Shown here piece after piece: positions 17,458 to 44,546 of a stretch of 44,546 nt of DNA. The stretch comes from Dirinaria sp. TL-2023a (lineage: Eukaryota). Every line of letters starts with the position of its first letter. Within the stretch, counting starts at the first letter, position 1. Position numbers and translations under genes: made by a program. The notes beneath the pieces are model-generated. The model did no database searches. It saw only the letters and a program-made list of their open reading frames with translations, and had not been told where the DNA came from. The DNA is taken from assembly GCA_051941275.1 (NCBI GenBank), contig JAVEBF010000030.1:1-44546 (forward strand), given 5' to 3'.

Positions 17458-17537
17458 TTCATGGCTGATAACAGCTTGTCAGCCTTCATCTCTGCTGTTC
17501 ATGGCTGATAACAGCTTGCCAGCCTTCATCTTTCTGC
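17458..17537. repeat. 40-bp tandem duplication
   Basis: ttcatggctgataacagcttgtcagccttcatct / ttcatggctgataacagcttgccagccttcatct at a 40-nt period. Confidence 0.9.
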
Positions 17538-17829
17538 AACACAATCAGTCAAACTGCATTTGGGGACGGAGGTACCTATTTAAACAACCGCCCCCCCCCC
17601 TCTTCCATTCTTTTTTTTTTTGCAAGCATCCACATCTACTCACTCCATCTTCCTTCCCACTCCTACACTTCCTCTTTCTTCAATCTTGGGCAGCTCAGCT
17701 ACATCTTTCAACCACCCTTGTGATATGCTTCAGCTGAGTCTGTCATAGTCCATCACTGCTCACTTTAACCTACCTCCTATCTAACTGTGTGATGTTAACT
17801 AGACTTTGATAAAAGCTCTTCAAAGGTCT

Positions 17830-23800: not shown

Positions 23801-23900
23801 ACGGAGCAACGGTACACGGACGGATATCAGGGCGTTTGGTATAGACAGGAAAGGTCTTGTATATTTGTGCCGGGTTTATATAGCGTTGAGATTGTCAGAA
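17830..23900 (+). pseudogene. Decayed coding region(s) with internal duplications; product not identified; boundaries approximate
   Basis: Protein-like plus-strand fragments (18713-19087, 19146-19376, 20588-21007) are broken by stops and frameshifts. Four copies of a W-R-x-x-D-P-R-I-x-W-x-D motif and several diverged direct repeats are present. Confidence 0.5.
22761..23055. repeat. Two-copy tandem repeat, 148-bp period
   Basis: aaggacacgataaagactcagagctcgatccaagaag occurs at 22809 and 22957; flanks align with mostly transition differences. Confidence 0.88.
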
Positions 23901-24524
23901 TAGCTTCTAGAAGATTATATAGCATCGATCTCAGTTGTATAGAAGCATTGAACATGGGATTGCGTTGATGATCTGTGCAGATGTGCAATTTCGAACTTGG
24001 CTAACACCAGGGTTATTTACCCTCGGTCCGCTTGTAGTACCTTCGTAATATACGGGCCGAGCTAAAGTCGGGAAAAAATATTCATCCTCTCTCTGTGTAA
24101 AATCTCCGCTTGAGTGATGCCTGGAAACAAAAATCAATTATAGGAATACTTCGTAAGAAGACCCTTCAGCTGATCCGCATTCAGAATATCACTGGGAGAT
24201 CATCAGCGTCTTTTCCTCAGATGTGGATGTGTAGTCCGCCACCTACATTCAATTTAGGACTCAGATCAAGGAGGTTTTCTAATACTACCAGTCTAGCTTT
24301 GACAGTTTAGTATTGGGAAATCCTTGACTATCAGAATGATTCTAGAAAGGCCCCCCTGGGTCATCTATATGCCTTGACGCTCGCCTATACAACTATCTGA
24401 TCACAGCCCCTGCCTAATGCTAAATAAGGATTGTGACTGCAGTGCAATTTTTCACACTAAACCCACAAAAAGTTCCCTCCTGACTTGGCTTTATGGCTAT
24501 TAATAACATTCATTATTTTAGGTG

Positions 24525-26070
24525 TCATGAGACCATTTCATCATGTTGCCGGATATCACTCTTCACGTGAATTCTGTCGGGCTCTTGCGGTATTGGCATA
24601 GGTTCGGTGTCATGGGTTACGCTCGTGTCTACCATCCCCGAATCGGGGTGTAATGCTGGCGCTTGAGAGGCCGAAGAGTTGTTTGCTTTCATTTCGTAGT
24701 AGGGTGTTCTGCGACGGCTCTTCGAGCGGCTGGACGCATTAGATCCAAGGGAAAGTTGACTGCGAAGGCTCGCCACAATCGATCGCACTGATTTTTTTGT
24801 AACGAGGAAATGTAGGCTGGGGAGGTTGGTGGCTATGATACTTATTCCAGCCTCGAGCATTCCCCAATATAGTAACGTAGTCAAACCCTCTGCAGTATTG
24901 GTCAGCGAAACCGAACATCTTCTGCCATGCGCAATTGTGGCGTAATGCAAGGAGAGCAAGAGGTCTGATTGCAAAGAAATGATCAACCTGCCGTCAACAT
25001 CAGTCTTGGCAGCTAACCCAGTCGATGCAATTTGAAACCCGTAAACGATACGGACCGCAGATGCGACAATCGATCTGTTCAAAGTCAGAGCAAGGTCTCA
25101 GCATGCCGATCGTTCTTAAAATTCTCACATAACACCTAGAAGGAGAACACCGATGATTCCTAGTTTGCGTGAAGTCGTCATATGGAGTCGCAAAACCTAA
25201 TAGAGGATCAGTGTACATTGATCTCACCATAGGAAAGCTCTGATAGGGCTAAGAAACGTACGATCGGGATCGGTAAGCCCACAACTAGCAGGTCCGTGAT
25301 GAGATCGGTGATAAAGAGGGTGTTTATGAACTTGTACGCCGTTTTGCAGTGCGCAAGCTCTATCAAGGGTCCCCAAAAAGCAGCCACGTGCCCACCACAC
25401 CTCAAAATCTCTGCCAGGCCGTATGCAAGTGTCCAAGCAACAACAATGACTATTGCTACTTTGCTGATGATGTCAAAATGGTTGGAGCTTCTGTCGGCGA
25501 ATAATCGGCGGTAGAAGAAGAGTACACTCAGTTTGATGAATCCATAGGCAAAGATAGAGATGAAGAAGAATATCCATTCGATCTGTGCAAGTGCTGCTTA
25601 GCTGGCAAAGTCTTAGAGAATGAATATTCCACCCTACTTTCTCGACGGCTACCTGAGCGGGGGAGATTTGGTATAATTGAGCTTGAGGATCTTTGTTGGG
25701 ATTCGGGGGTGTCGTGTGGGCGATTACATGTTTTGCAACCCCTTTTGCGCGTAAGTCAATGAACAGTAGGTGCATTTAGAGGTTCTTGGGATAACTTACC
25801 GACGAGCAGAGTTATTCCAAGACCAATGACACAAAGCTGTTGCTCTTAGGTCAAACGGTGATCCCTAGTACGGCTGATGCGTCTAACCAATGCTGGGACA
25901 ATAAAAACGTCGTCCAGCCCAAATGCAATCTGCCTATGATATCTTGTCCAAAAGCGCAATGCGACGGTAATAATGGCAAGTCCTGGTAGCACGGTTGCGG
26001 CTGCGATCGTTTGACCACGAGTATTCCAAGCGAATGATGTTCCCGCCGTATGGCCAACAGGAGCTGCCAT
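24525..26070 (-). CDS. PTH11-like (fungal rhodopsin-domain) integral membrane protein, multi-exon
   Basis: LAIITVALRFWTR...FGLDDVFIVPAL; TDLITDLLVVGLPIP; IVASAVRIV; LYWGMLEAGISIIATNLPSL; Ser-rich C-tail. The exons appear as separate ORF fragments. Confidence 0.85.
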
Positions 26071-27392
26071 AATGAGCCTTGTAATACTTGCACACTCGTT
26101 GAAGCGTTGTACTGTATCTGCCTATCGCAATCCAGGGAACAGACTGGTGGAAAAAATAGAGCACGAACAAAACTTGTACAGGAGCTGTGCAGCGTAGAAA
26201 AGAAAGTAACAGAAAATGCGAGACACTGAGCTAGGCTAGCGAAGAGCCTCTCAAGCGCGGGTCAAAATTATCTGACTTGGGGGTGTTTCAGTGCCTAGGA
26301 GACGCCATGTTCGCTCGCGACGTCCATTTCCGACTTCCAAGCGTAGTTCTCACGCAGCTGTCAATATGGGCATCCCGTGCCTTGTTGGATAATGGCGATG
26401 AGCAACGGAACGGATGTGCTAGCAGAGCGCTTACAATAATGCACATGAGCGTTTTGAGTCGTCTCCGGAACGACTTCCACAGTGCCGTTGCATTAGTGGC
26501 GCTGATCGCGTTAACCAGCGCTCTTGCCGCGCGTGGATAGCTCGGGTAGAATAAGGTAGGAGGGGTAGGTACGAGCATCTTAGTGATCATCATGGTGCAT
26601 GCATCAGGAATGCATGGCATATTTTGCGACCTTGCGTTACTGCAGTAGCCGAGTGGTCTTGACTCACAAACTAGAAGGCGCGCATACTTGAGATGTGGGA
26701 TGCATTCGAAGGAACCGACGTCTTAACACGATCGCCGATCTTGCAATTCAGGCAACCACCCAGGCACCATCGGTTTCAATTTATGATCTCATCGTGCACT
26801 ATTCGTACCATAAACATGCAACGCTACGGTGGAACAAGGCGCAGCTCGATGCCTGGTGATGGATGATAGGAAGCTCATGCGGTATCAACCGACCACTCAT
26901 ACTTTGAAGACTTGCACTTTGTCGTACCACCCTTGCAAAGGGCAGCACTAATGACATCCTTTAGGATCGTACTATCCCGATGTGCGTCAAGTGATTAGCA
27001 CGACACCTGGCCAGGCCGGCAAGCTCAGGAATGCATCTCTGTTAGATGCGAAAAAGTGTATCCTGAAGTCTGATGGTCAGTCTCGGGTTGATTCTTTCCC
27101 TCGCAATGGCAGAGCATACATGCTCACATCCAGGCGATAATAGATCGGCGATTGACCGGGATGAGCTCCCGAAAATGCTCATCACTCAGGAAGCATGGCC
27201 CACACAGCGTGCATATTGGGTGTGAATCCCTGGAGCACACATGGAATCCACACCAGAATGGACTACTCTTGCATAACCCACTGTACCGATTTGCTGAGCA
27301 CAGTATGTGCTGTGAAGCCTCGTTTTCGAACGAAAATTCCTTCTAAGGCTCTACCTTTGTCAAATAAGGACCACAGCAGGATCCTGTGTCCT

Positions 27393-28612
27393 TCACTCCG
27401 CTAATCTTCGTGCTACGATTGTCATCTTTGCGTATCTTACAGCTGCGCCAGCTTCAGACTCCTGGGTTGCTTTGAGCACCATGTCTCTCAACTCTTTCTC
27501 CCTCTCCACATCACGTGCCTTCAACATCACATCTGCAAATTCCTCTGCAGAGAGAGCCCATCTGCCATGGTCAGCCTGGAGTGTCGAGCAGTGAAAAGCA
27601 CTTTGAAAGGTTTGATATGTAACTTACACGTCATTCCAGAAGACAGCCATGTGTGCGCCCTCAAGATATTGAAATTTCTCTGCGTTAACAAATCCGTTCC
27701 TTGTGAGAGTCGCTGGAATCTCTTGAATCCAGTCACGAGGTCCAAGAATGGTCCTATGATTCGCCCAGGTCAGCCAGGGAACCACGGTCCCAGAAGCGTA
27801 AATGAAGAAAAGCCTACTCTCCCTTCTGCCCTTTCAAGGGGGACACTAGTAGATTTCGTAAACTGTTCAGTCCGCTGACTTCCAGGCCCGACTTAGTTGA
27901 AAAGACGTGAGCGGTCGGTGTGTCTAGCTCGTCCCACTGTACATAGCCACCGGGTTCTGGCGCAATCAGTCACAAGAGAGTCTCATCGTCGCCTATTGAA
28001 TCGGAAAAGAGTTGTAGTAGGTGCAGAAATCAAACTTACTTAATAGACGAGCTAGGTCCCTGACAACATTGGTAGAATCATTATTCTTAATAGTAATGGC
28101 AATTACTCGTACATGGACTACGTCGTATTTGGCCACCAGGTCTTGTGGTACCTCTGAAGAGAAATCCCACTTTCGAAATCTGACGTTGGAGGGAAGCCAC
28201 GCTTCTGGCGGACATTGACCCAGATTGATATCCAGACCATCCAGTTGAGTGGTAGCTGGGAGCTTTTCGGCAAGGTCTAATAGCCAAATACTAGTTCGCA
28301 GTCAATCAGCGAACATTCAGATGATGCAAAGAGACGAATTCAAAAGAATAGTCACGGCAAGCCATCTGTCGTACCCAGAACCGGTGGCTAGATCAGCAAT
28401 TCTCGCATCCGCAGGTAAAGCCGGTATATTCGGGTGCAAATGGAAGCCCAGCGAGTGTTGCCATAAATAATACTGGTAGTTAAGACTGCAGCGATAGTGA
28501 GTATCTCGCTTTGAATCACATAGAGAAGAGAATGTTCCTACCGAGAAGTTGCACTATGGCTCCGTCCAAGTACGTATCCGTCCTTAACGGGAGACTCTTC
28601 GGCGTTCATCAT
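27393..28612 (-). CDS. SAM-dependent methyltransferase (fungal secondary-metabolism class, GliN/LaeA-like), 6 exons (28612-28542, 28485-28375, 28290-28040, 27956-27818, 27753-27628, 27561-27393), ~288 aa
   Basis: Manual splicing gives MMNAEESPVKDGYVLGRSHSATSRLNYQYYLWQHSLGFHLHPNIP...RIADLATGSGIWLLDLA...LDGLDI...CPPEAWLPSNV...YDVVHVR...LLKPGGYVQWDE. All five introns are GT-AG and frame-preserving, with no internal stops. Confidence 0.9.
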
Positions 28613-29241
28613 TCTAGTCGAATTTCGAAAGGAAAATCAAGGAGCAGATGGGACTGCGCAAGGAAGGAAACGCATGAATATCTAAATTCCACAACTATTT
28701 TAGCATCTGTACGTCAATAGGAACCTTCTGTGAAAATTGGGTTCCGTGATGTTTATATGCAAAAGGGACTAATAGCGGGCGTTCTTGAAACTACCTAGGT
28801 TAAGACTGACACTCTCCTTGCAGGTCGGGTAACATCGGGCCGGCTGGTTCAGAAAATTAGAGGTCAAAGTGGGGTTATGCAAGCACTAGACCAGCGCAGC
28901 AGTTTTTTTGGTTGATCCTGCAAGCCTGCCCTGCCCTTTATGGCTCGTCAAATATCCAAAAGAAAAGTGTTCGGAGTATCGTCCACTAACTTCTCCCCCA
29001 AGCTGTCAAGCTAGGGAAGCGGTCGCTACCATGCGTCCAATTCAACACCCTCACCATAGGAATTTGCCAAGTCCTGGATGAAAAATCCAAATCCAAATCT
29101 TTTAAGAATTGAAGGGCCAAAGAAGATTCTCATTTGACTTGTCGTGGATTCAGGTTGCCCAGCTTCATCCGAATAAACGCCACTGCTCAGATTGGAAAAC
29201 GACTAGTATAGCACAGCCACAAGATCCGATGACAAGCCATA

Positions 29242-30217
29242 TCAATGGATGCTCTCAAAGCCATCTTCTAAAGTGATATCGTTTCCGCTTTCGGGACTCC
29301 ATTGCGAACTCTTTCCAAAATGCTCACGAACTTTCGGCCAGTAAGGCGAATCCTTGGGACAGAATTTGAAGCGCTCGAACTGATCGATGTAATCGGCTTT
29401 AGGACTGATGTAATTATAACATGAAGTTCGCTTCTTGGCCCAATTCTCTAGTTTCGACCAGTGTCGGCATTGGCGCAGCTGACCAACTGCACTCTCTGGT
29501 GATTTCGTGATGGTCGTATAACGAGGGGTGTCGTCGGCCTGACAGAGTATATCGCTACGTAAAGCGTCCAGGCAGTGAGTAATGTGTAAAAGGGGCAGAG
29601 TCTGCGGGAGACCTAGATGATAATGACGAATTGATTGATGTATGTTTTTCTGCTAATACATGAGACTAGTTAACGCTCGACTCGAGGAATGACATACAAT
29701 GCAATGAAGAGCGTGGTAACCATTGAGTACGTACAATCCCTGAGTTACATCCCAAGGGAAAGACTGTGCCCGCGGCAGCCCCTTGGATCGAGTCCATTCA
29801 TACGGCAGAGCAACGAAGCCTGGGTCGAAGTCGATGGCGTCCCAAAGCTCCGCAGCTAAAGTGAGATTATCTGTAGCGTATTCTGTGGCCCACTCGAAAG
29901 GGACAATATTATCATTCAGCAGATCGGCTAAATCTGTTAGCAGTGCATACCAAATACTGTATAGGGGTGAGAAAACCATAAGCGGAGCGTTGGTGGATCG
30001 TTGGGCCCTTTGTGCGTATAAAATAGACGGTAATCGCGACGTTGATTGCTAAGGAGATACTGAAAAGCAGCAGAAATACATCTCTTCCACTGCAAGACCG
30101 CCAATGCTCAGACTTAAATGTTGATTTCGACACATTGCATTCATGCTCAGTGTCAGTGGATAGAAGTGGCTGTATGTCGGTCTGCATGTTTTGTAAAGGA
30201 GTGCTAGGGCTCGTCAT
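29242..30217 (-). CDS. UstYa/DUF3328-family oxidase #1, 3 exons (30217-29977, 29927-29698, ~29649-29242), ~292 aa
   Basis: Single N-terminal TM (LLLFSISLAINVAITVYFI); twin HxxHC motifs GYHALHC and LHITHCLDALRSDILCQADDTPRY; RQCRHWSKLENWA. Confidence 0.92.
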
Positions 30218-30519
30218 GATTAATGCCCGTCGTAATCTCGAGAAGAGGCAATTGGTACGGCTGCTAGTTTTCTTTGACTTCTAACGTTTCTGTCTTTTCA
30301 AAGCTTTCTTAAGTCAGAAAGTGCGTGCCATTTAGGCCAAGGCGTATTGAGGAAGAGTTCCAACTTGGCTATTTCCTCGTCTCGAGTTGTGAGGAGTAAT
30401 TGTTATCACGAAGACGCCGTTGCAGAGATGAATGCGAACCTGGACCGGAATGTAAGTCATATGTGAAAGAGAAATATCTGTCCGATCCGTTGTATCCAGT
30501 TTGGTATCGGACTTGAGCG

Positions 30520-30543
30520 GCGCCAATAGCTGCGCCAATAGCT
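30520..30543. promoter_or_regulatory. Tandem 12-bp CCAAT-containing repeat upstream of DUF3328 #1
   Basis: GCGCCAATAGCT x2, about 300 bp upstream of the ATG at 30217. The regulatory role is inferred. Confidence 0.35.
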
Positions 30544-31857
30544 AAAGAAGCAAAACCAGGCACGTATTATTGCAGGTGAAAATTTCAAAGAAAGATTCGG
30601 AATGTTCCAAGGCATTCTCATGTAGGGTATTGTGATTTACCCAACCATACCTACTACGCTCGAAGATAAGACGATGTTGACAGGGGGAGGTGATGCGCAC
30701 TTTTCCTCCACCAACCAAATTTTGAAGCAGGGCTTTCGCCCTGCTGCGCGAAACGCAGAGCTAGCAGGCTGTAGCATAGCGTACGTAGAGTTCTCACATG
30801 GATGCAGTGATACATGCACGTCGCGACGTACAGTACTGTAGGATTTGAAGCTGGTTAGTGCCATTCCCTTGAGAGAAAAACTGGTGTCACATGCACATGC
30901 GGTGTTCCAATTGTCATTTCGGCAAAACTTCGGTGACCAGCTTCGTAGGGCTGCTAGCGCGCATCCTTTTTACTTATGCGACACTGCGTCATTCAGATAC
31001 ATTGACAAGAGAAACCCAAGATTGAATGAATGCGTGGTCAAACAAATTCTTTCATTTAGCATTATGAGACTTATCAGCTTCCACAACTCCGTTGGAGTTG
31101 ATCATTCGCAATTGATACGAATCAAGTGAATGTCGAGATCAAATCTTGACGGATGGCCAGTAAGTAGACGTGGTTTGTAAACGTAATCGCTGATACTCTC
31201 ATTGAACGAAACCGAAGGCAGGGTTCAACCGTGCGCTTTAGGCAGTTCTAATAAAGGATTACAGCAAATTTTCGGGAACATCTGTAGCGCAGACACCTTT
31301 GCTACGATGTTACAATAGAAGGTAAGTTACTTGACCTAAAATGCCCTAAACTACTTCTTCGGGCGCGCAACCCGCCCAGGTGAAATTTTTGCGTAATGTC
31401 TTTCAAAGAGCATAGGGAGCAGTCCTCGCAAGCATCTATCCCCGAGATCATTCACCGCGACCCGAACACCTACTCTGCATTGCCTTCCATAAAGGCCGAG
31501 GCCACTGCACAACATCTTGAGACGGGCAGCGATCTTGTCGGATAACGGAGAGATTCTCTTGAGGTCAACCCTCAGTAGCATGTCTATGTTGCATCCCCAA
31601 GCTAACTCCGACTCACTAATTTGCGGTTGCTTGAAGCTTCAAATAATTAAAAAATGGGAGGCATAAAATGTACGACTTTTACCGGGATGCTTTATAGCAA
31701 CAGCAAGAACCCGGCGAAAGATCCACCAAATACCAACATCAACTATTCCCAGCATAATGAAAGCCCGAGCCGATCATAGCGTCCTCCATTTTGCGTTTTA
31801 TGACTGTAATGTTTCGGCCATACCCTGTGCTATCAGTGTTCCTCCAGCACCAATCAG

Positions 31858-32007
31858 TCAGAGCCCGTAACCAGGTCCTGGTTCCGTTTCGGGGACCTCT
31901 AAAATTCCATACTCATGGGAAGTCGGGGGGCAGTAATGGATAGGAACGGCGGTAGTCAGACTCAGCAGCGCAAGAATTGCAGCGCGAATGGCGTTTTCGA
32001 TACGCAT
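31858..32007 (-). CDS. Small secreted peptide, 49 aa (MRIENAIRAAILALLSLTTAVPIHYCPPTSHEYGILEVPETEPGPGYGL); candidate RiPP precursor
   Basis: ATG in CAACAATG context; signal peptide with basic n-region, hydrophobic core AAILALLSL and TTA|VP cleavage; likely 5'-UTR intron; lies between two DUF3328 genes. Too short for the ORF track. Confidence 0.72.
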   Translation of the reverse strand: MRIENAIRAAILALLSLTTAVPIHYCPPTSHEYGILEVPETEPGPGYGL

Positions 32008-33376
32008 TGTTGCCTATGACGGACTGATAGTTGTAAGTATGCACTTGTCCACCACCAAGCAAAAGTACCTACTCTGCTGTTGAAGAAACCGAAGTTCGTG
32101 ACAGAGTTTGGATAACGGATAGGAAACAGAAAGCGATAAATTTCCAACTGGTACTAATTTTCACGCAGGCGAAGGTTCTCACCAGCTAGAGTGTCGATAA
32201 TAGTTCTAAAGCTTAGGCCAAGCGACTTTGAAAAAGATAGACTATGTACGAACATGTTTTGCAAGTTATTATACTATACTCAACCCCCGCCAAGGACGGC
32301 TCTCATGGAATCTGCTACGGTAAGAAGTTTAAACCCGTCATTCACCGTCCAAGCACGCCGGAAAATGAATCGTTGATCATTTGCTGATTGGGATGCTCCT
32401 AAATCCGTCAGTGGAGAAAGCCTTTCTTGAGTTCACTCATACGTGGCGTATGCGTCTCAACTGTGGATCGCGTCATTGTGGCAACCAATAATGAGCTCAG
32501 ATTTTTATGGCAATTCTCAAATCCTAGAAGAAATTTGTCTGACATTGTCGAGGTGCGGGATGAAAATAGGCAGGTATTGGCTATTCGGACCAAGAAGCTC
32601 ACTCCGTTTGGTAGATTGTCGACGGGATCTACCCTATGCACTCTAATCAGGCTATTTGACGGTAGCAGTAGGCAATTGAATCATGCGTCATGCTTAGAGA
32701 TTTGCATGCTACATTTCGAAATGCAGAGTGCAGCAAGGGACCGTGGAATCCTACTGGATCATGCGCCCAAGAGGCACGACTTACTTGCTACCCAGTTATG
32801 CAATGCATGTAACAAGGAAATTTATATCCCGATACTAGTCAGACAACGCGAGAAAGCAATTGTAAGCAAAAGATGCAGCAAGCTATCATGCACTCCACCG
32901 CATGTGCAATACCAACCTATAAACACCTCGGAACTCGATCCAGGATGGCAAGATCAGCGAGCGACCAGAAGATGAAAAGCTAGTTGAGCGGTCAAAGAAG
33001 TACTACGCGTGTAGGCTATAGAGCTGCATTGACACATCACTATGCTTGAACAAAGGATGGAACGCACTAAATATAATCGCAGAGAGTATTCTGACCTGCA
33101 TGAAGGGCACCCATTACTGACCAACGGCAGATTGAGGCGCGCTCGTCGTTCCTTTCAACGTACTTCAAAAAGATTGGCGGTTCATAGGCCAGCCTCTCCA
33201 ACCGACTTCATGCCTCTCGTTACCAAGAAGCTTTAATGAGAATGCTCAGTTCTCGAGACTTTGTCGATTGAACTTAGCTACGAATTCTTGCTAAGAATCT
33301 GTTTGCTCTTCTCTGTCAACCGCGAGACCTGTCATAGATTCATTGGGAACTGGGAAAGAAAGACATACGCTGGACG

Positions 33377-34359
33377 ATGAAGGATTTCTATACTGCCAAT
33401 CGCAAAAATTCAGGCGCGAGCTACCGTCCGATCGACTTTTTTGAAGAGTACGAAAATAAACCTCATTCAAAATCGAAACCCGCAACATTTTATTGCAATT
33501 CCCCACTGAATTGGGCAACAACAATATGCATCGGACTTCTAGCGCTTGTCTTTTGCCAGCAGTATTGGATAATTAGACACCATTTTCGACCTTGTCCAAA
33601 TAGGCTGTTATCGTCTAGTGAGCGTCCCAAAGCTCGTTTCTGTGCGATGGCTTAAGAATATAGAAGTCACTGGTGGATTGAAGGCTGATATGGCAACTCT
33701 TCAGACGGTCTAAGCCTTGCTCTTGACAGAGAATACCTTGCTTCGGTACCAACGAAGTTCACATCACCAAATCTGACCGAAGCCCACGAAGCTTGGGGTG
33801 CTGTCGAAGCTGGTCACGGCGATGTACTGATCGACCCTGAATACGCAGCTGAGCGTGACTTACCACCATCCATACCCCATCCGAGAAATCCAACCAAATT
33901 ACTATACATCATCGAGTCTTATCACGCAATTCACTGCATCGTAAGTAGTATATGCTGAGCCATTTTGGACTCCAGGGATACGTCTCGAAATTGGCTGATG
34001 AGTTTTCGTTCGCCTTGTAGAAAAGACTTCGTACTCATTACTTTTCGCTCATGCATGGCAAGCCTCTAGTCTGGCCTCTAGAGCATGATGAACATTGCTT
34101 CGATACTTTGCGGCAGAATGCTATGTGCTGGGCTTCGGACACGCTTTTGTATACCACGGGAAATTTTGATGCGGGCGTAAATCAAACACGCTTCTGTCGA
34201 GACTGGGGTGCGCTCAGAGATTGGGCAACTGAGAGGTCAGCTTGCTATCACGACTACGAGATAGTTACTGGCGAAGAGCTAGGAGAAGACGGATGGGGAA
34301 AGCACCTAGGAAAATGCGATCGTGGTGATGACGGCTTGCCTTTGGATGGCTTACTATGA
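33377..34359 (+). CDS. UstYa/DUF3328-family oxidase #2, 3 exons (33377-~33617, 33705-33940, 34021-34359), ~271 aa
   Basis: N-terminal TM (TICIGLLALVFCQQYWII); SYHAIHC and EHDEHCFDTLRQNAMCWASDTLLYT; RFCRDWGALRDWA. The first donor is ambiguous among same-phase GTs at 33618, 33636 and 33642. Confidence 0.92.
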
Positions 34360-35728
34360 CAACGTGGCCAGCCAACTCCGACTGACTCTTTTGTCTTCTT
34401 AAGAATCCTGGCAGGCTTTCTACGCGTCGTTGATTATAGATGCGGTTGATTGACCTTTTTGGGATGAGTAAAGACGATTTTAGCTTCTTCTACTCGAAAG
34501 ACACCTTACGATTCTCACAAATCGAGAAGCTTCCTCCAGAGCTTATTCCTTGACTATCAACGTCCATCTTTAACCATGAATCAATATCTTTAATGTTTCA
34601 ATTGGTAATCTGTCCGACCTGTGTACGTAAGATGAAGTCGAAATCAAGTGGAGTTTTCTGTGAACAAATATTGAGTGCAAAATAGCGAGTTTGATACTCA
34701 AGCTAGGTTAAAAGGATTCACATGTAGCGCAAAACTGTGCTGATGCGCCAGCAGAGGAGAGTGAGTGACGGAGAACTCGTATGCTTTTGCCGCACTTTTC
34801 CTCCAGGCTTCGCTTGGGCCCTGACTATCGGTTATCGTTGTAGACAGGATACAGCAGTTTGCGTAGCTACTAGCCTCTTATGAACAGCTTCTCAGTCCCC
34901 TGATGTTTATCCCGTTGATGTGAGCTGCCAGAGTTCAAGGACTGAATAAACATCTTTAACGTCGACGAGACTCAAAACATAGTACAACGACTTATTCAAT
35001 ACGAGCTTATAAAGCATCGAATGCAGTTCCCACGTATGAGACGATATATGTTGCATTGGCAAAAGCGGATGAACAGGAGACAAAAGCTGAGTCAGTCAAA
35101 GTATGGGTTTTTTTTGATCAATGATTTTCGATGAAGATCCGATCCACTGCGTGCATAGATGATATCATAGATTCAAAAAAAAAAAAAAAAAAAGATGTGC
35201 TGCTGAGATACCACTCACTGTGGTCTGCAAGAACTGTTCTCGTGCCAAGACTCAATAACAGCGAGGTGCATCCTACCTGCCTGCATATGGTCCCTCTTTG
35301 TATGCACGTCTGCCTGCTTTCTAAAGTCTCGCCAGCTGTTTTGCTGTAGATCAACGCAGCTATCTCCCACTCGATTGCGTCGTGTAACTGCCCTCGGCAT
35401 CCATCGTATCCGGCTGTCTCTTTGTTCTCGTCATGAGGTCGTATACACTGAGATCTTTCTTAGACGGCAAGGGTTCTCTGAATGTTCTGATAGCTCATGC
35501 ACGTCCTGTCGATAATATCTTGCAGATGTCAATGCACTATGTCTTCATAGAAGCATAGCAGCCGTCAATTGCCAACGGTGTGTTCTGCGCCCATAACACG
35601 CCTACTTGAAAACTTCTCCCTCCAAGTAGGTACTGACGGAGATGTGTCTAATGTAAATGTTCTGATAGCCGGAGAGTATCAGTCGTCAAAGTTCATATAG
35701 CTCATAAAGACCCGAATCCAGTGAGACA

Positions 35729-37096
35729 ATGACTTCTTGGAAGGAGACATCGCCGGGGCGTTTCGAGCGGCCATTTGACTCGATAGAGAGGTTCTTTCTT
35801 GCTCTAGCACGGCAAAGCCTGCCTCTGAACAGAGAGCATTGGGCTCTCAGCTTTTTTGCGCAATTCGATTTGAAAGCATCACAAGCAGACACTGAGTCCG
35901 CACTGAGACATGCCTGGAAGACAATGCGATATGACCATCCTCAAATTGCGTGTATCGCATGCGAAGATACCAAAATATACGAAGTACCAGATCAACTCGC
36001 CTTGGATGCCTGGTTAGACGAGACTTTCATCGTAACCACAGCATTCTCGACCAAGGATGACTTAATGGCGTCATTTCGTCCGTGTAAAAAGGCAACGCTC
36101 TACTATCTTCCGCATACATCGGAAATTTTGATCCATACTTCGCATTGGCGAATCGATCTCATTGGAATGGCTGCCTTTTTGCAGAATCTATTCAAAGCCG
36201 TGGCCGAGCCTCGTCAAATTCATTTTGGTGACGAAGGAGTCAACCTTTCACCAAGCCGAGACCAAGCTGCCGAGTATGGCTCATTAGATTACATCGGCTC
36301 CTCAGTCCAAGCCAAGCAGAGGGAGGAAGCTGCCACAGACCTTTTCATGCAACTGCTCGTTCCGTCAATAGGCCTCCCAGCGCAGAATCTCGACCTAGCG
36401 CCAGGCCTCACTCGACGATTGGAGCTTGTCCTTGACACCAATACAACGTCTGCAATCGTGCTGGCAAGCAAGCAGCGAGGCTTCACCATCGCCACAGCGT
36501 TTCATGCTGCTCTAATTGTTGCACTGCAAGAAGTAGCCCCTCTATCTCCGTCAACGCCGAGTAACTATGTAACCTTCGGGATATTCAGTGTACGCCCACT
36601 GCTTTTACCCACATCTAATGACGCATCCGCCCATCCAGCAGCAGTGTACATTACGGGTCTGCCACTAGTGCTACAGCTTTCTACTTATATCGATCTTGCT
36701 CTTCAACTCAAGCAATATTACAAGCAGCCCCTACCTCCGTCAGCAAACAGCCATGTCAAAAAAGATATCATTGTCCCTTACACATGCAAAACGGTCGACA
36801 TGATCGATCAGGCCCGACCTGGGGAAGTGCTAGCGCTGAGAGAGCCAATCTTGAGTAGCGCAGGAATCTTAGATAAATATCTAAAGCCCATGCATGGCGA
36901 TATAACAGTCAAAACTTTCGGCATGGGATTGCAGATGACGACAGCACAAATAGCATGTCACCTATGGACTTGGCAGGGCAAGATGACATTGAATGCCTCC
37001 TACAACGAAACCTTTTATGACCAAGGCTTCGTCCAGAGATATTTGGAGCGGGTAATAGAGATAGTCAAAACGGAGCTGGCCGTTCGGATAGTCTGA
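35729..37096 (+). CDS. Tri3-like (trichothecene 15-O-acetyltransferase family) CoA-dependent acyltransferase, intronless, 455 aa
   Basis: WKETSPGRFERPFDSIE, AWKTMRYDHPQIA, catalytic HxxxD in SHWRID, FGDEGVNLSPS, C-terminal WTWQGKMTLNASYNETFYD. Confidence 0.85.
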   Translation: MTSWKETSPGRFERPFDSIERFFLALARQSLPLNREHWALSFFAQFDLKASQADTESALRHAWKTMRYDHPQIACIACEDTKIYEVPDQLALDAWLDETFIVTTAFSTKDDLMASFRPCKKATLYYLPHTSEILIHTSHWRIDLIGMAAFLQNLFKAVAEPRQIHFGDEGVNLSPSRDQAAEYGSLDYIGSSVQAKQREEAATDLFMQLLVPSIGLPAQNLDLAPGLTRRLELVLDTNTTSAIVLASKQRGFTIATAFHAALIVALQEVAPLSPSTPSNYVTFGIFSVRPLLLPTSNDASAHPAAVYITGLPLVLQLSTYIDLALQLKQYYKQPLPPSANSHVKKDIIVPYTCKTVDMIDQARPGEVLALREPILSSAGILDKYLKPMHGDITVKTFGMGLQMTTAQIACHLWTWQGKMTLNASYNETFYDQGFVQRYLERVIEIVKTELAVRIV

Positions 37097-39006
37097 TTGG
37101 TTTTGAGACTACTATATCGAATATTCGTCCCACGGGTTTCCGTTTGTCTGAAAGCGCTGAGAACATTTCGTTAGGCTTAGTCTGCACTCGAGTGCCATTC
37201 TTTCTGAGTATGTCGAAAGTTTTCCAATGTGCCAGTTTCCCATTTTCAAGACGATGGTCTTCTGAAGTTTTCAGCCTCGCAGTTTAACAGAATCTTGGTC
37301 CATCAATTACTTTTTCCTACAGAGCTGCCCTTTGGCCTCTGACACTATAAGGCGGGGTCAAAAGCCTCATGACCCGAAAGTCAGAATGTCAGCGATCTTC
37401 TCGGCTATTGAAATGCCCTGTCTACCGAGCTGAACGATAGAATCTAACCCAGGAGAAATTGGTTTTACGAACCACTCACAGCTCTCTCGAGATGTTGGAA
37501 CTCCGTGTAACTTTAGCTGCCATGATACACGTTAACCTTCTAAGAACGGCAAAGTGCACAATTAGTGATACATACCCATTACGAACTAAAATGTACGCTT
37601 TGATGAAGACCTAAGGTCGGAATTTGCTGTCAATACCCTGTCCTTGTTGGCTACTCCCTCGGCTAGGTGCTGTGCACTCAAATCTGCAGAGTGCAATATA
37701 AGCCTCGGAATCCCGTTCCCCTCGCGATCATTCTTGTACGTCTTGTTTCGAGCCCATCTATAAAACTGCCTCAACACCTCCAACAACATTTCTTAGATAC
37801 GTTGACCAAAACGGTCTAGCTTCTAGACTAGGCAACCTTACCTTAACACCTCTAAGGGTAAATAGTGCCCACAAATGCTTTTTCATAGACTTTAGACAAT
37901 ACATGCTACATACACATACCAATTAGGTGCAATTGACTTGTTGGCGTATAAATCTGACACCATCATCATTGCTTGTGACGCCGGACCCTATATTTTAGTC
38001 TTCATACGCTGGAAATTTTGTTCTGCTTCGTATTGTCCGCTTCGTCTTGACAAAGAAATCCAGCGATGAGATGCATTGTAGAGTCTCAATGCCAGAAATG
38101 TTTTGGCTATGTCGAATAGGGTGACTCAGAAGATAATGTCTCTCGACAGCACTTCTTGGACTCGACCGACGGGCACAACTTCGCATTTCGCGACACACTT
38201 TGAATCTCAAAATATCGTGTATTGCGCTGAGAGGAGCATCGCATGTGAGGAAAAAGGCACGTGAACGATAGATTGTACATAAATGGATATGGCTGGTCAT
38301 CGGAAACCCAGGATCGGACACATTCACGAGAGCTTGGAACAAGATATCAAAGAACCCATGAACCACGTAACTTGTCGTCTGCTTCATCGACAGATCGAGT
38401 CACTCGCAAATCTTTTACAGAATCGATCCGCTTACGCGATGAAGTTCTCAAAAGGCTTGTAGCACGCAACAACCACCTTAAGGTACTTTCGTTTTTGGTG
38501 AGTCTTTGCCAAGTTCGAAAAAGTCGAGTAAATAAAGTCTTACGTAAGTCAGTATGCCAAGCTTTCACTCGATAATGTGATGATGTAATTCAATTTCCCC
38601 TTAACAGTCCACGCCAAGCTTTGTAGACAAACTTAGGTTTACTCAGGGCTGACTCAGGTCTAGTAGAAGAAACAAGCGCTGCTGTATCAACTTTTCTTCA
38701 ATACGATTCTGCCTGCCAGACATCACGAAAATTTGGTTGCTCACTCGTCTAGCGATTATTTTTGGGTTAGTCATAGAGGATGTTGTGTAGACTGGAAGTG
38801 GTTACTTTGTTTATGTGAATTCAACGAGCGTAACCACGGCAGGAGAGTCAAGGTATAATATCTCTTGACTTTCTGGAAAGCGGGAACGGCTTTTTGGACC
38901 TCTGGTCGCCTTTTATTACTCGTAGTCAGGTCGTGATGTGATTTTGAGTCATTTTATTGAGCAAAATGACTTGTGTACTAGTGTTGCAAACACTACATGG
39001 TTCTAC

Positions 39007-40641
39007 TTACTCGACATCTGCAGAAATCAAGGCTCTTAACCCTTTTGACTTTCGACTTGGCAAGGCATTGAAACCGTCGACAGTAATCTTCAAGTCCCGG
39101 TCATAGTTAACTTCGTGCAGACTCAATCGACCTCCAAACCTTCTTACCACGGCAGCAATCGTCAAATATAGTTCAGCCCAAGCGAGGTTGAGTCCGAGAC
39201 ACATACGGGTGCCACCACCAAACACAACCAAGTGCTTGCAACGTTGGCGAACCTCAGGTGAATCGAGTGGCAGCCAGCGTTCAGGCAGAAAATTGTGCGG
39301 CTCCGGGAAGATGTCCGGATTCTCAAGTGTGTCCATCATAGTCATGCCAACGGGGACATTCTTTGGAATAATGACATCGCCGTAGTGGTATGATACGTCT
39401 GGTGAGATCCGCGCTAGGCGATGTGGTACGCTCTTGCTTAGCCGGAGAGCTTCGTGCAGTACAGCGGTCAGGTAAGGGAGCTTTTCAAGCTCTGCGAAGG
39501 TGGGCATAGCTGCAGGGTTAGGAATTGCAGCATTGAGCTCTTGACGAAGTTTTGTTAGACACGTTGGGGAAGTCAGAAGGTAGAAGATGGTAGCATCCAG
39601 GGCAGTTCCAGTTGTCATAGTTCCCGCTCCGGTCAATGCTTGCGCCTCTTCAGTCAAACGAGCCACAGACTTCTCGTGAGGAGGCACATCGGCTTCAAGT
39701 ATAGCGTCGAATATGGTGAACGCGTCTGTAGGTTTCTTGGAACCTGTTGCGTAGCGCTCTACGACCCCTGAAACCCCTCTTGCAAGATCCGCCTTGCGTC
39801 TATTCGCTGCCTGTAGGCCATTTGCTGTGGCTCGCGACGTTATTTGTGGGAAAAGTGCCGTGACTTGGAAAATCCAAGGGAAATGCCGGACGAGGTTGCC
39901 GGTGCGACTTTCAGAGACCATCTGTCTGTACCAGTCTTGAGCAAAGTCTTCCAGCTCCAAACACCCATACGAGTAGCCGAAACAAACTCGAGAGATGATG
40001 TCCAGAGTAAGTGCCACAAAAGCGTGAGTTAGCGATATTACTTTCTTGGTTCCGCTCGCTTCTTCCAACCGAGAGCAAAGCTTGTCAATCTTGCTGGTGA
40101 TGAGAGGTTCGAGGGTTCGTATCGAAGCTTTGGAGAAGAACGAGCTTAGTTGATTGCGTCGCAGCTTATGTAAGTCGTGTCCGATGGTTTTGAATGTAGA
40201 ATTTCGTGTCCACCTAAGGGGCAGCTGTTATCTCGAGACTGGCTGGGGATTTTCTTGACGTGGGCAGGGGCATACGATTGTCTTGCGAGCCACATTGGTT
40301 TGTCAGTCCTCCTCTTCGCTGAGCCAACGTAGAGCACGTCGAAAAAAGCTGGATCGTTGCAATGCACTTCATGAGGATTGATGCGAACGAAAGGTCCTGC
40401 GTCATCAAGATCAGAAACATTCAAATAGGGCTCTAAGACAATACATACCATACTTTTCGTGCAAGTCCCGCAGCTTCCAAGTATATTGCCCTTCGTGCCA
40501 GACATCGTAGAAGAATTCATAGAAGTATGTAAGTGCTGCGAGCTTGGGCCCGGGAAACCTGGCTGCCGGCGCGAAGCAGAGACGGTAGATAATGAGGAGC
40601 GCAAGATAGAGAGCAGCTAGGATGCTCAACAGAGCAAGCAT
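39007..40641 (-). CDS. Cytochrome P450 (CYP58/Tri4-like clan), 3 exons (40641-40449, 40396-40276, 40213-39007), ~506 aa
   Basis: TM anchor then FPGPKLAALTYFYEFFYDV; GPFVRINPHEVH; I-helix AGTMTT; ExxR (EALR); PERW; heme motif FGGGTRMCLG. Confidence 0.93.
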
Positions 40642-41280
40642 GCTTTGAAAATTTAGGCTTAAATCTGAGAGGTCCTGAGAATGATGATCACATTCTTCGT
40701 GACTCGACAATATTAAATCCAACAGGCCATGGGTGCCCGGCATGGAAGTATTTCGGCGAGAAGTTTGCGTGTTTTCTAGTCTGCAATACAGGATTTCTTT
40801 CGATCCATGATCGCCACTCCCCAACCTTTCTCGAGTATTGCAAGATTGTCTTGTCGAATCAAAGCTCTGGCCAGTCATGCAGTCGTCTGACTAAGCCATC
40901 TTTCCATGCGGGAGGATGCAGGATCCCAGCAAAGCGAACTAAGGCGCCGTGAGCTGCCTACAACAGTCCATCCCCAGCATTTGATACTTAAGCATGAAGA
41001 GTTCCAAGTCTCGGTTGACACACCTCGTTCTTGAAATGCTAGAGCGGGCATAGATTGGCGAAATATGCGAGACACTCGAAGCAAGCCAACGACTAATCTA
41101 CCGCGAGATCCTCTTTTGCCTCCTCGCAATACCTTCTATTTAGTGCAGCAGGATGGTCTGTGGAATGGTCTATTACAGCTCTATGATCCCTATAGGGTTT
41201 TCACAGAGTTTTTGAATTGCTAGTAATCTATTATAAGCTCGCAAAAACCTATAAGAGTCATCCGTGCCGGACCTTTGGTT

Positions 41281-42552
41281 TCAAGGTACCTTTTTCATCT
41301 GCAAATCGAAAGCCGGATGGGCAAAGTTCTCCCGCTCTGGAAACATCTTTGTTACCTTCGTCCATGCGACAAAATTGACCAGTCCTACAGCGATACTGTA
41401 GATCGTTCGAAGAATCCAAATGCCCAGACTCGTCTGAGGGTTGAGAAGGTACGGTGCATAGCCGCGTAGTGGTATAACCTGACATTCCTCCACATACGAT
41501 CGAAATCTCTTCTCGTACATCTCAAACGCCGTCACATTCCGATTTCTCGATAGTTCTTGGGCTAGGACCCAAGCACCTATAATTGCCAATTGATTTCCTT
41601 CGCCAGTAAAAGGACTTGGAGCCCAAGCTGCATCACCAACGAGAGCTACCCGGTTCTCGGACCATTTCGGGAGCTTCACCTGCACGAGCTCATCGGAATA
41701 AAAATTGTCGGTCTCCATCATCCCCTCCAGGATCCGAGGAGTTTCCCAGCCTAGGCCACTGTATATATCAGCAAAGGCTTCCTTTTGCTTTCGTCTTTCC
41801 CCAGCAGCATTCGCTCGACGCAAGCTAGGGATATCGTCCGAGAGCTTGATGAATGCTACTGATGTGACCTTGGACGAGCCGTATTCCTTGCCTGTTGGCC
41901 GCGTCCACACAATTCGCCGGCCTGGGAAGTGGCATACACGGGAGTAGGGCCAATCTCGGTCTTGTTTCGGGATGGAGAAGTAAGCAACGAAGGCACCGAC
42001 ACGCTTGAAACAGCCGAGCTTCTCGGGTGAACCCATGACGAGCTGCCTCGTGCGAGACCCTACTCCGTCCGCACCTACAACTAGGTCAAACTCTTCGCTG
42101 GTAATGGCCTTGGTGTTTCTGTTCTCCAGGTCGACGATGGCTTTTTCTGGTGTCTGTCTGATGCTATGGAGTGTTGTCTCGAATCGGTAGGCGACATTGG
42201 CAAGTTCGTTGGCGGCATGATAGAGAACTTCAGTCAGGTCACCGCGCATGAGCTCAAGAGCACCTGTGGGACTGATGCCGTCGCCGGCATCTAGGACGCC
42301 GTAGGAGCGAGCTTGCGCGTCTTCAAGCTTGAAGCCTTTCTCGCCTGTCTTCTTCTCTTGGAGCTTGTCCAGGACGCCCATCGCCTTCACGACTGTCAAT
42401 GCCGGTTCCTCGATCTCAATACCTTGTCCCGCTTTTTGCTCAGATCTTGACCGCTCAATGACGACGACTTGAAAGTCGTTTCTTGCGAGCCAGTAGGCTA
42501 AGATTGAACCTGCTGGACCTGCGCCACAGACGAGAACCCTTTCCGACGGCAT
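41281..42552 (-). CDS. FAD-dependent monooxygenase (FAD_binding_3 / group A type), intronless, 423 aa
   Basis: GAGPAG Rossmann motif, DLVVGADGVGS (DG motif), RVALVGDAA...GEG (GD motif). Confidence 0.92.
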   Translation of the reverse strand: MPSERVLVCGAGPAGSILAYWLARNDFQVVVIERSRSEQKAGQGIEIEEPALTVVKAMGVLDKLQEKKTGEKGFKLEDAQARSYGVLDAGDGISPTGALELMRGDLTEVLYHAANELANVAYRFETTLHSIRQTPEKAIVDLENRNTKAITSEEFDLVVGADGVGSRTRQLVMGSPEKLGCFKRVGAFVAYFSIPKQDRDWPYSRVCHFPGRRIVWTRPTGKEYGSSKVTSVAFIKLSDDIPSLRRANAAGERRKQKEAFADIYSGLGWETPRILEGMMETDNFYSDELVQVKLPKWSENRVALVGDAAWAPSPFTGEGNQLAIIGAWVLAQELSRNRNVTAFEMYEKRFRSYVEECQVIPLRGYAPYLLNPQTSLGIWILRTIYSIAVGLVNFVAWTKVTKMFPERENFAHPAFDLQMKKVP

Positions 42553-44546
42553 TGTACGTGGTAATCCTTGATATAAGTGATTGAGATATCGAATATAGTT
42601 TGAAAATATCTACAGCAGCAGACGATATGTACAATAAATTATGTGCAATAACGATGTACCAGCCTGCGAAGGGATGTTTAAGGTACTTGTGTTTCGAACT
42701 TTTTAGGCTTCAGGAATTTAGCAGGATGTGATTGGCCACAGAAAACTCCGGGAGTACCATTACACCGCAGAGACAGTGTCGTCGGAACAATGTATTTCCG
42801 AGGCCGAGGCAGCAGGATCTTCAAAACCTTGAGTAAGTGTGCAACCGCTACTTAAAGTCTTCGAACCGTGTGCGGTGCATTGATTGACTCAATATACAAT
42901 ATGGGATGCTAATTTTCAAAGCACAGGTTCAATGTATACAGAGACCAATATATGAACCGCAGTAGATCTAGTCGCCTCCCACACGATGGAGGCTGGCATC
43001 TCTATTCTCGACAATCACTGTCGGAGAAGAAATCAACCTCCGATATTTGTTAGATCTTGCAGCGTTGAAGTTCGGAATTTGGTCTTGATACTCGTGACCT
43101 TTTTGTTCTCGCGATCTTCATGCTCTCTCTTCCATCTGCTATGCGGCGGGCACTTCTGGCCCGTACGCGGGGAAGTAGACAGTTCCAATGAGGACAGGAA
43201 CAGAGGAACACCAAGCCGATATTTCGAGCAGAGTCTGCTGCTCCGGGCTTCGTACCTGACCAAGAGCTTCTGTAGCTTTCACAAAATTCTTTATGATGTT
43301 TGGAGAATTGAATAAAGATTTTCATTTAGCATACAGCTAGCAGGAACAACTATCTTAGCGGAGACGTGCGAAACCAGGAGGCCGAGAAGACGCGGACGCT
43401 CTGGAATAGCAGTATCTCTGCGTTGATAAGGCATCGATACAGTATCTCCACGGAACCCATACGACTGATAAGGTGTCTATACTATTCTTCCAGAGCTACC
43501 GCGCCTTCTCAGCCCCATGGGTTTGCATATCCCCGCTCATATATGGAGAAAAGTGGATATTACAGAGCCATAAGACTTCAGAAAAATGTCTTTGTGGCTA
43601 TCGAGATCATTGCTTAGAGCACCGTTCTAATTACGAGGCGGAACTACTCGCACCGACAATGGTCAAGCAACGTTGAGAACGTCAGTGTGAGGAAATGCAT
43701 GAGCGAAGAAAGCGAAATAAGGGAGAAGACCACTTGCCAGTGATAGATATTGATGACGGATCGTGGTTGAGTATAGCAGGGAAAGCGCATAGCAGACGCG
43801 GCCACTTCGTGCCTTCCCTTTTGGTTCGATTCACCAAAACACACCTCAAGTCTCTGTCTCTCTGGTGTTTTCTTTTGGCAAACAAATCTTCAAAGACTGA
43901 AAAGGTTTGGGATTAAACTTCAAAAACTCGATTATGGCGTCTCATACAATCGCTTTCTCCACGACGGCTTTCCCCTCCCCAGTTTCTTCCTCCCCCTCTC
44001 CATCCGTGTCCCTGACCTTGAAGCCTTGGGGCTTAGACCCCAATCATTGGGGCTTTTTATCTGGCTTCGGCGCCATGTAGGCTGCGGGTAATGCTTTTCC
44101 ATCTCCTTCGTTCGAGGGGCAGTTAGGGTTGCCGTGAGCGTCAATCTATATATCTTTTAATGCATGGCTAGTCGTGCTTGGGTTAAGGGATTTTTAATCC
44201 TGCTTAATTCTGTTCCACTAATTGACTTATGACACCAGTTGAAATCAAACTTGAACCTAATCTTTGTTGAATTGTGACGAGAACTCGCGTTGACATGTAC
44301 TCATAGCCCTTATGACTATTTTGGCCTTCCCGACCCTCGTGCAATGGTTGAGGTGTTGGGGACTCGTTCGCCTGTCTCAGGACGACCTCCTCGACCGGGG
44401 GGCAAAGCTGGCTGCTCTTGCAGCAGCAGCCAGGGCCTCAACTAGTCCTCTGGTCGAGGAGGGTCTGGCGGATAGGCTGACTGATGAGGCAGCGGCGGTG
44501 GGGACGGAGTGGGTGAGACGGGAGACTGGGGGTTGGAGTGAATGGT

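Follow-up and report, generated by a model that had tools for sequence, protein, structure and literature searches.

Positions 27393–42552 of contig JAVEBF010000030.1 from Dirinaria sp. TL-2023a, which was analysed here as a 44.5-kb window of intron-bearing fungal DNA (the whole stretch of 44,546 nucleotides), contain a real, transcribed gene cluster of a lichen-associated ascomycete that is centred on two genes for UstYa/DUF3328 oxidases. The locus offers a concrete, short, transcribed candidate for a peptide precursor exactly between two intact UstYa genes, namely a 49-codon open reading frame (ORF) with a signal-peptide-like N-terminus. We tentatively propose that this 49-aa peptide is the substrate of the UstYa enzymes and the single-copy precursor of a dikaritin-like ribosomal product of the cluster, a reading that seems quite possible to us, although we give it somewhat less than an even chance.

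Gene content and transcription of the block

The original prediction had placed seven features within this stretch on the basis of the DNA letters alone, and all seven were present at those positions. Together with the transcript that contains the small ORF, they are as follows.

27393–28612, minus strand: putative class-I S-adenosylmethionine (SAM) methyltransferase, 288 aa, six exons (28542–28612, 28375–28485, 28040–28290, 27818–27956, 27628–27753, and 27393–27561) with five RNA-supported GT-AG introns
29242–30217, minus strand: UstYa/DUF3328 #1, 291 aa, exons 29977–30217, 29698–29927, and 29242–29649; transmembrane anchor, HALHC, HITHC
31450–32460, minus strand: small-ORF transcript, ends estimated from bin depths; 49-nt GT-AG intron 32024–32072 in the 5′ untranslated region
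31858–32007, minus strand: 49-codon ORF, candidate precursor; residues 1–20 signal-peptide-like, followed by a 29-aa tail
33377–34359, plus strand: UstYa/DUF3328 #2, 271 aa, exons 33377–33617, 33705–33940, and 34021–34359; transmembrane anchor, HAIHC, HDEHC
35729–37096, plus strand: stand-alone HxxxD coenzyme A-dependent acyltransferase, Tri3/AATase/condensation-like, 455 aa, no intron, HWRID
39007–40641, minus strand: cytochrome P450, exons 40449–40641, 40276–40396, and 39007–40213; N-terminal anchor, FGGGTRMCLG
41281–42552, minus strand: group-A flavin adenine dinucleotide (FAD)-dependent monooxygenase, 423 aa, no intron, hydrophobic C-terminal segment

This gene set was confirmed by Pfam matches, by sequence motifs, and by RNA-supported gene models. 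Every enzyme ORF of the window was intact, and the catalytic motifs were all present. The enzyme genes clearly exceed what chance would produce, whereas the small ORF, judged by its length, does not.

The RNA evidence consisted of contigs from four runs (X1–X4) of one lichen metatranscriptome sample from one study, examined over positions 25000–44546. These contigs were 90–99% alike to the window and none reached 99%, indicating that they were derived from a relative and not from the strain of the window itself; 744 differences separated the relative from the window, 40 of which were listed. Splice joints were observed in the methyltransferase gene (five), the UstYa #1 gene (one), the UstYa #2 gene (two), the P450 gene (two), and the small-ORF transcript (one). 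Spliced transcripts were thus obtained for five of the seven genes, and contigs of the same sample lay over all seven features. The cover of the acyltransferase gene, which extended from end to end, and that of the FAD monooxygenase gene are indistinguishable from DNA carry-over because neither gene has an intron, and an X4 contig (29678–29936) that runs into an intron indicates that the library contained unspliced material. The parts free of contigs (26304–26955, 38040–38691, and 42604–44546, and the small-ORF region in X1 and X4) cannot serve as boundaries or as signs of non-expression, and contig depths were not used to rank the genes.

Both UstYa/DUF3328 proteins were recognised by profile as well as by motif. 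Pfam PF11807, with a cut-off of 25 bits, matched the UstYa #1 exon at 29242–29652 on the minus strand (7e-12, 46.1 bits) and the UstYa #2 exon at 34021–34359 on the plus strand (1.5e-11, 45.0 bits), and the UstYa #2 exon at 33689–33958 on the plus strand scored slightly below the cut-off (5.9e-5, 23.5 bits). Each protein had a hydrophobic N-terminal segment and a complete HxxHC(x)nHxxHC motif, consisting of HALHC at residue 152 and HITHC at residue 179 in UstYa #1, and of HAIHC at residue 154 and HDEHC at residue 181 in UstYa #2; the two proteins were 28% identical. According to the available portions of PMC12435403, this motif forms a two-copper site, and the activity of the DUF3328 enzyme CctR, a membrane-anchored, lumenal, disulfide-linked homodimer that requires O2 and electrons, is abolished when its conserved His and Cys residues are changed to Ala. 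Similar results are cited in the same source for AprY, a cyclase, and ApnU, a halogenase.

The model of UstYa #2, both joints of which are of the GT-AG type and were spliced in the relative's contigs, received independent confirmation from P0001, a protein of the relative that shares 206 of 220 residues with it and likewise originated from an RNA assembly. In UstYa #1, the intron at 29650–29697 was spliced in the relative's RNA, and the frames of the membrane anchor and the catalytic region were out of register in the genomic sequence. The 49-nt intron at 29928–29976 on the minus strand, in which the donor (GTTTTC) is unusual and the branch site is CTAAC, must be removed because the alignment to the orthologue P0005 shows it, and its removal gives the intact 291-aa protein. 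This intron was kept unspliced in a contig of the relative that was otherwise spliced, and the orthologue P0004 reads through the equivalent stretch. The same alignment to P0005 ruled out a start at Met 29979, which would leave the protein without its membrane anchor, and led us to drop a 58-nt intron (29893–29950) in favour of the 49-nt one. The UstYa #1 orthologues (P0003–P0005) were found at 66–71% identity in three other sources, one of them, P0004, on a 50-kb contig, and P0005 at full length scored 78.1 bits against the UstYa profile.

The remaining genes encode candidate tailoring enzymes. The P450 matched PF00067 (7.4e-53 at 39007–40227 on the minus strand) and carried FGGGTRMCLG as its heme motif. 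The FAD monooxygenase matched FAD_binding_3 (8.2e-25), and its best relatives with solved structures were 6-hydroxynicotinate 3-monooxygenase (1.1e-47) and the tetracycline destructases (approximately 1e-45). These matches, at 1e-47 to 1e-44, were to group-A hydroxylases and not to class B flavin monooxygenases (FMOs), and the sequence places the enzyme in the group-A aromatic-hydroxylase type. The analogy that had been drawn with ustiloxin tailoring is loose for the flavin enzymes, the one here being of group A and UstF1 and UstF2 of class B (PMC6514808).

The acyltransferase was described earlier as Tri3-like, and this is a reasonable label, although no profile matched above its threshold (Condensation: 3.9e-4, 19.7 vs. 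30.6 bits; Tri3: 0.014, 14.6 vs. 23.5 bits). It matched the Tri3 acetyltransferase 3fot in the PDB over residues 393–446, that is, its last 54 residues (6.3e-6), and its nearest Atlas clusters were fungal and of the Tri3/AATase/PapA_C type (score, 0.99), with these domains in 11–89% of the members, depending on the family and cluster. The methyltransferase gave a clean 288-aa ORF only when the five RNA-supported GT-AG introns were removed, and its single exons had no match in Pfam (CheR score, 0.2), the domain being split over six exons. By eye, we take DLATGSG, LDGLDIN, YDVVHVR, and LLKPGGYVQWDE in the spliced ORF to be the class-I SAM motifs. This putative methyltransferase is the weakest of the enzyme assignments in the cluster.

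When the 205 stop-to-stop ORFs of at least 70 aa in the window were compared with Pfam, none contained a domain of a nonribosomal peptide synthetase (NRPS), polyketide synthase (PKS), or terpene synthase, as had been predicted, and none contained a tyrosinase or S41 peptidase domain. Pfam scans of the ORFs within the seven-gene block revealed neither a transcription factor nor a transporter.

Shared words were observed upstream of several genes of the block. All four copies of the 9-mer CTTTGAAAA in the window (30295–30303, 32226–32234, 40643–40651, and 42913–42921) were located 5′ of cluster genes, these being the genes for UstYa #1, the small ORF, the P450, and the FAD monooxygenase. When one mismatch at most was allowed, CTTTGAAAATT occurred five times, compared with 1.5 expected, and none of 100 shuffles reached five. 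These words came from an exploratory k-mer screen run without multiple-test control, and CTTTGAAAA/CTTTGAAAATT may be a shared control element, which we regard as a lead only.

The 49-codon ORF and the readings of the locus

The 49-codon ORF lies on the strand of the spliced transcript and is the longest ORF in this RNA of approximately 970 nt. The joint 32023>32073 on the minus strand was present in one contig each in X2 and X3, with 255 letters on its shorter side; because the contig reaches 255 letters or more in both directions, it contains the whole ORF. The ATG has an A at position −3, and the frame is closed by a stop two codons before it, which means that the ORF is not the end of some longer protein continuing through the mapped intron. 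In this transcript, the relative's listed indels (31836 and 31846) fell 12–22 nt 3′ of the stop codon.

Tyr, Pro, and His are abundant in the 29-aa tail, which includes the stretch E-Y-G-I-L, with Y-G-I-L at residues 33–36. At the level of sequence, Y-G-I-L fits YxIx, the proposed core pattern of ustiloxin/phomopsin-type precursors (PMC7329392, in its available part). For comparison, we used 177 null ATG-ORFs of 30–120 codons from presumed non-coding DNA of the window, 12 of which contained YxI. A crude, home-made rule for signal peptides (a charged start, an uncharged hydrophobic run of at least 8 residues, and small residues at −1 and −3) was passed by the 49-codon ORF and by five of the 177 null ORFs. 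When the transcript was shuffled 3000 times with its dinucleotides preserved, an ORF passing this rule appeared in 7.3% of the shuffles, and one that also had YxI after the signal peptide in 0.23%, the motif having been chosen post hoc. Prediction of a complex between the lumenal part of the relative's UstYa #2 and residues 18–49 of the peptide gave a score of 0.01, which speaks neither for nor against an interaction.

Two further observations concern the structure of the transcript. Run X1 had a separate contig at 32255–32400 and almost no cover of the small-ORF exon, and a 45-nt skip (32398>32444) was observed in the X1 contig over 32255–32800. There may be a second, overlapping transcript in the spacer, for example from an upstream start of UstYa #2 or as antisense RNA, and the X1 contig suggests that the long 5′ part of the small-ORF transcript may be a merger of overlapping transcripts. 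A possible second intron of 47 nt at 31825–31871 on the minus strand (GTTACG...CACAG, with a CTGAT branch site) spans the stop codon of the small ORF; its splicing would keep G-Y-G and give a 73-aa product in which an N-I-T site and K-R-K are present. Within this segment, the relative differs by an insertion of 19 nt and a deletion of 1 nt. The second intron was not adopted, the segment being unspliced in the RNA contigs.

If the 49-aa peptide is the precursor, it would enter the endoplasmic reticulum by means of its signal peptide, and its Tyr-rich 29-aa tail would be acted on in the lumen by both membrane-anchored UstYa oxidases, whose divergence (28% identity) is what might be expected of a UstYa/UstYb-type pair. 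By analogy with ustiloxin and phomopsin, a Tyr-O-C(beta) ether could be formed across Y-G-I, with each UstYa presumably working as a binuclear-copper, O2-dependent homodimer, as for CctR, AprY, and ApnU. Because the peptide has no KR site, we propose that it would be trimmed by proteases other than Kex2. The P450 and the group-A flavin hydroxylase would then oxidise the product, and the flavin enzyme may substitute for the missing tyrosinase, while the methyltransferase and the HxxxD acyltransferase would cap the product. A bolder claim can also be made, namely that this peptide is the first single-copy, Kex2-independent UstYa precursor, consisting of a signal peptide and a 29-aa propeptide with one YxIx core, and that it represents a non-repeat branch of the dikaritins with a tyrosinase-replacing flavin hydroxylase; this we offer as a conjecture that we doubt rather more than we believe.

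The claim of the original prediction that the locus makes a RiPP (a peptide that is synthesized by ribosomes and then modified post-translationally) is favoured by the gene set, the UstYa pair, and the transcribed candidate but not by the chance length of the ORF, its unremarkable codon usage, or the lack of a homologue. The points that weigh against the peptide as precursor are several. A sense ORF of at least 49 codons was present in 68% of 2000 dinucleotide shuffles of the transcript (median, 56), and the 3.2-kb spacer contained 28 ATG-ORFs of at least 30 codons. The codon-usage score of the ORF (0.113 per codon) was within the range of real genes (0.035–0.245), but it ranked 11 of 107 among presumed non-coding ORFs and was not separated from them. 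If the transcript starts at the contig end, up to five short upstream ORFs or ATGs precede the start codon. The predicted lack of tandem Kex2 repeats was borne out, with no KR (Kex2) site and no internal repeat in the 49 residues and no tandem repeat at 31858–32007 in Tandem Repeats Finder, which leaves a single-copy candidate unlike the precursors of the ustiloxin (ust) and phomopsin (phom) clusters (16 repeats in UstA). Furthermore, the RNA base is narrow (one sample, contigs only), and the right flank is short.

The UstYa #2 of the relative (P0001) is a further such point. It carries Cys185Tyr, which gives HDEHY and not HDEHC as the second motif, and ends at residue 220 of 271, 51 residues early; over 554 nt of coding sequence, it differs from the window by 12 non-synonymous and 8 synonymous changes. 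Changes were mapped at window positions 34096 and 34201–34206, and in 34054–34097, five of the seven nucleotide changes alter the protein. Because the His/Cys mutants of CctR are dead, the relative's copy is probably inactive, yet it is still transcribed. It may be that the relative's lineage can do without the pathway, or without UstYa #2, or that the contig stems from a dead allele.

The searches for relatives of the peptide point the same way. A word-based homologue search with the 49-aa peptide among proteins of 26–86 aa yielded no candidate, and HMMER over 1.84 billion representatives yielded one match, P0002 (3.2e-6), a 119-aa protein from a 120-kb metagenome contig that belongs to no Pfam family. 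P0002 consists of two near-identical 60-aa units that share YCPPxxHEY, each with a hydrophobic stretch followed by YCPPKPHEYSPLF, which resembles HYCPPTSHEYGIL of the small ORF (BLASTP, 33.5–34.3 bits per unit). Its E-value arises because the duplicated unit is counted twice; approximately 34 bits per unit correspond, by our own estimate, to an E-value in the hundreds for that library, and P0002 was rejected as a chance-level match. A metagenome scan with the peptide gave 601 pattern matches, of which one (L001) passed tblastn. This match, YGILEVPESPPGP, was also attributed to chance: it falls in an alternative frame of 44 aa within an intron-less ORF of 422 aa, and the contig has a guanine–cytosine (GC) content of 51–61% and other long ORFs. 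The ESM Atlas gave no usable match, the recognition value of the peptide being 1946 and thus below the mark of 2300. None of the protein collections searched contained the ORF, and the peptide words HEYGIL and YCPPTS were absent from four supplementary files of PMC12048977. The absence of relatives is nevertheless weak evidence because small ORFs are rarely called as genes.

The locus can also be explained without a ribosomal peptide. The cluster may tailor a non-ribosomal product or small molecule, with the backbone enzyme outside the window, or a primary metabolite, and the small-ORF RNA may be non-coding or promoter-associated; we take this seriously, as a possibility with perhaps somewhat poor prospects. 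DUF3328 enzymes also serve NRPS and PKS pathways, such as those of cyclochlorotine, the astins, and atpenin (PMC12048977; PMC12435403, in their available parts). The flavin enzyme is of a small-molecule aromatic-hydroxylase type, the acyltransferase is Tri3/AATase-like, and such an explanation would also accommodate a transcript in which no ORF is longer than chance, several ATGs lie upstream, and the encoded peptide has no homologue. Past the FAD monooxygenase gene, only 2 kb of DNA is visible, but this contains no Pfam-recognisable ORF, and no backbone domain was found in any of the 205 ORFs across the 44.5 kb, including the left flank of 27 kb. A signal-peptide-like sense ORF would, moreover, be uncommon by chance, given the shuffles described above, with the smaller of the two frequencies depending on the post hoc YxI.

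Alternatively, the cluster may belong to a RiPP pathway whose precursor lies elsewhere, as a Kex2-repeat gene outside the window or unlinked to it, and the 49-codon ORF would then be irrelevant. The dikaritin precursors named in the available parts of PMC6514808 and PMC7329392 are all Kex2-processed repeat proteins, and PMC12048977 names a precursor outside the biosynthetic gene cluster as an alternative for lichen clusters. We consider this unlikely, however, given that precursor genes occur near DUF3328 genes, on average three genes away (PMC12048977, available text), and that we noticed no secreted ORF with repeats in the window. That the block is transcribed yet forms no working pathway, its genes adjoining one another with no product in common or the cluster being in decay, seems very unlikely to us. 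The changed copper-motif Cys and premature stop of the relative's UstYa #2 and the lack of a transcription factor or transporter in the block would suit such decay, whereas the enzyme ORFs of the window are intact with complete catalytic motifs, each of the seven features is overlain by contigs from the one sample, and all four copies of CTTTGAAAA are 5′ of four cluster genes.

Flanking regions

Outside the cluster, Pfam matched a major facilitator superfamily transporter (801–1970), a SnoaL-like protein (10735–11388), and membrane proteins with a fungal rhodopsin domain (8766–9448 and 25208–25597). The two rhodopsin-domain (PTH11-like) genes were located at 8338–9906 on the plus strand and at 24525–26121 on the minus strand, and the latter, which adjoins the cluster, was spliced in the relative's RNA (joints 25074>25262 and 25582>25638). 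An ORF with a PD-(D/E)XK nuclease domain (4914–5321, plus strand, 7.8e-18) and a stand-alone RNase H ORF (13063–13755, plus strand, 1.2e-19) may be remnants of mobile elements. Among the 31 rows reported for the window by Tandem Repeats Finder, the sole long array was a 148-bp unit repeated 1.8 times at 22760–23031, and the ORFs of this array had no Pfam match. The region at 17000–24000, which includes this array and a 40-bp unit present twice at 17451–17531, showed a lower GC content (44–46%) and a strongly negative GC skew, and Pfam recognised no ORF in it. Its appearance is that of decayed repeat or transposon DNA between the cluster side and the left-hand genes.

Comparison with known UstYa/DUF3328 systems

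UstYa/DUF3328 genes are very numerous in fungal genome mining, and most DUF3328 clusters lack a nameable precursor because current rules seek Kex2-flanked repeats. If the 49-aa peptide is the precursor, the rules for finding fungal RiPP precursors must take in single-copy small ORFs that ordinary gene callers skip, and the failure of repeat-based mining in hundreds of DUF3328 clusters of lichen fungi would be explained. If this is refuted, the locus becomes another case of DUF3328 enzymes in a non-ribosomal pathway.

The dikaritin precursors described in the available parts of PMC6514808 and PMC7329392 combine a signal peptide with Kex2-flanked repeats, and UstA contains 16 YAIG cores flanked by ED and KR. 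According to the same sources, the Tyr-Ile ether ring of ustiloxin is made by UstYa and UstYb together with a tyrosinase, and the later steps involve a methyltransferase, a P450, two class-B flavin monooxygenases, and a pyridoxal phosphate (PLP) enzyme. The present cluster resembles the ust and phom clusters in having at least two divergent UstYa/DUF3328 oxidases beside a candidate precursor gene with a signal-peptide-like N-terminus, and in a Tyr-x-Ile core (YAIG, YVIG, and YVIP in theirs; Y-G-I-L here) with an acidic residue, Glu in this case, before the Tyr. The ust cluster also has a methyltransferase, a P450, and flavin enzymes for tailoring, as the present one has a P450, a flavin enzyme, and a putative methyltransferase. 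Unlike the ust and phom clusters, it has no tyrosinase of the UstQ/PhomQ kind, which the ustiloxin/phomopsin type needs for cyclisation, no S41 peptidase, and no pathway regulator or transporter in the block. Further differences from the ust cluster are the group-A flavin enzyme in place of the class B UstF1 and UstF2, the extra HxxxD acyltransferase, and the absence of a PLP enzyme.

A UstYa-type cluster without a tyrosinase is also known for asperipin-2a (aprA, aprY, aprR, and aprT), in which one DUF3328 cyclase links Tyr side chains to beta-carbons through ethers (PMC6514808, available part); AprY depends on copper and O2 (cited in the available part of PMC12435403). In contrast to the present candidate, the precursor AprA has Kex2 repeats and FYYTGY as its core, and the apr cluster combines a single UstYa with a reductase and a transporter, the tailoring set found here being unmatched in it. 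Several DUF3328 paralogues per cluster also occur in the cyclochlorotine (cct) and astin clusters, where they are membrane-anchored, lumenal, and copper-dependent and act on a cyclic peptide (PMC12435403, available part). Those clusters contain an NRPS, whereas there is none in the 44.5-kb window.

A further comparison is with the DUF3328 clusters of lichen fungi. In the available text of Pasinato and Singh (2025; PMC12048977), 987 'RiPP-like' clusters are reported from 111 lichen-fungus genomes; the DUF3328 clusters are described as having no repeat precursors, some contain non-repeat genes with a signal peptide, and a single core peptide is hypothesised. As in Clans R1 and R2 and many singletons of that study, HxxHC-bearing DUF3328 genes are central here and a repeat precursor is lacking. 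The idea of a single-core precursor is therefore not new, having been proposed there for lichen clusters. In our search of the literature, which was light on subscription journals, we found no published description of a UstYa RiPP from a single-copy precursor without Kex2 sites, and the available text of PMC12048977 names no specific small ORF and gives no transcript evidence. Unlike Clans R1 and R2, the present cluster combines a P450, a group-A FMO, and a Tri3-like acyltransferase, and GNAT acetyltransferases occur in Clan R2. The new element in the present locus is a specific candidate for which there are transcripts, in a gene set distinct from those of Clans R1 and R2.

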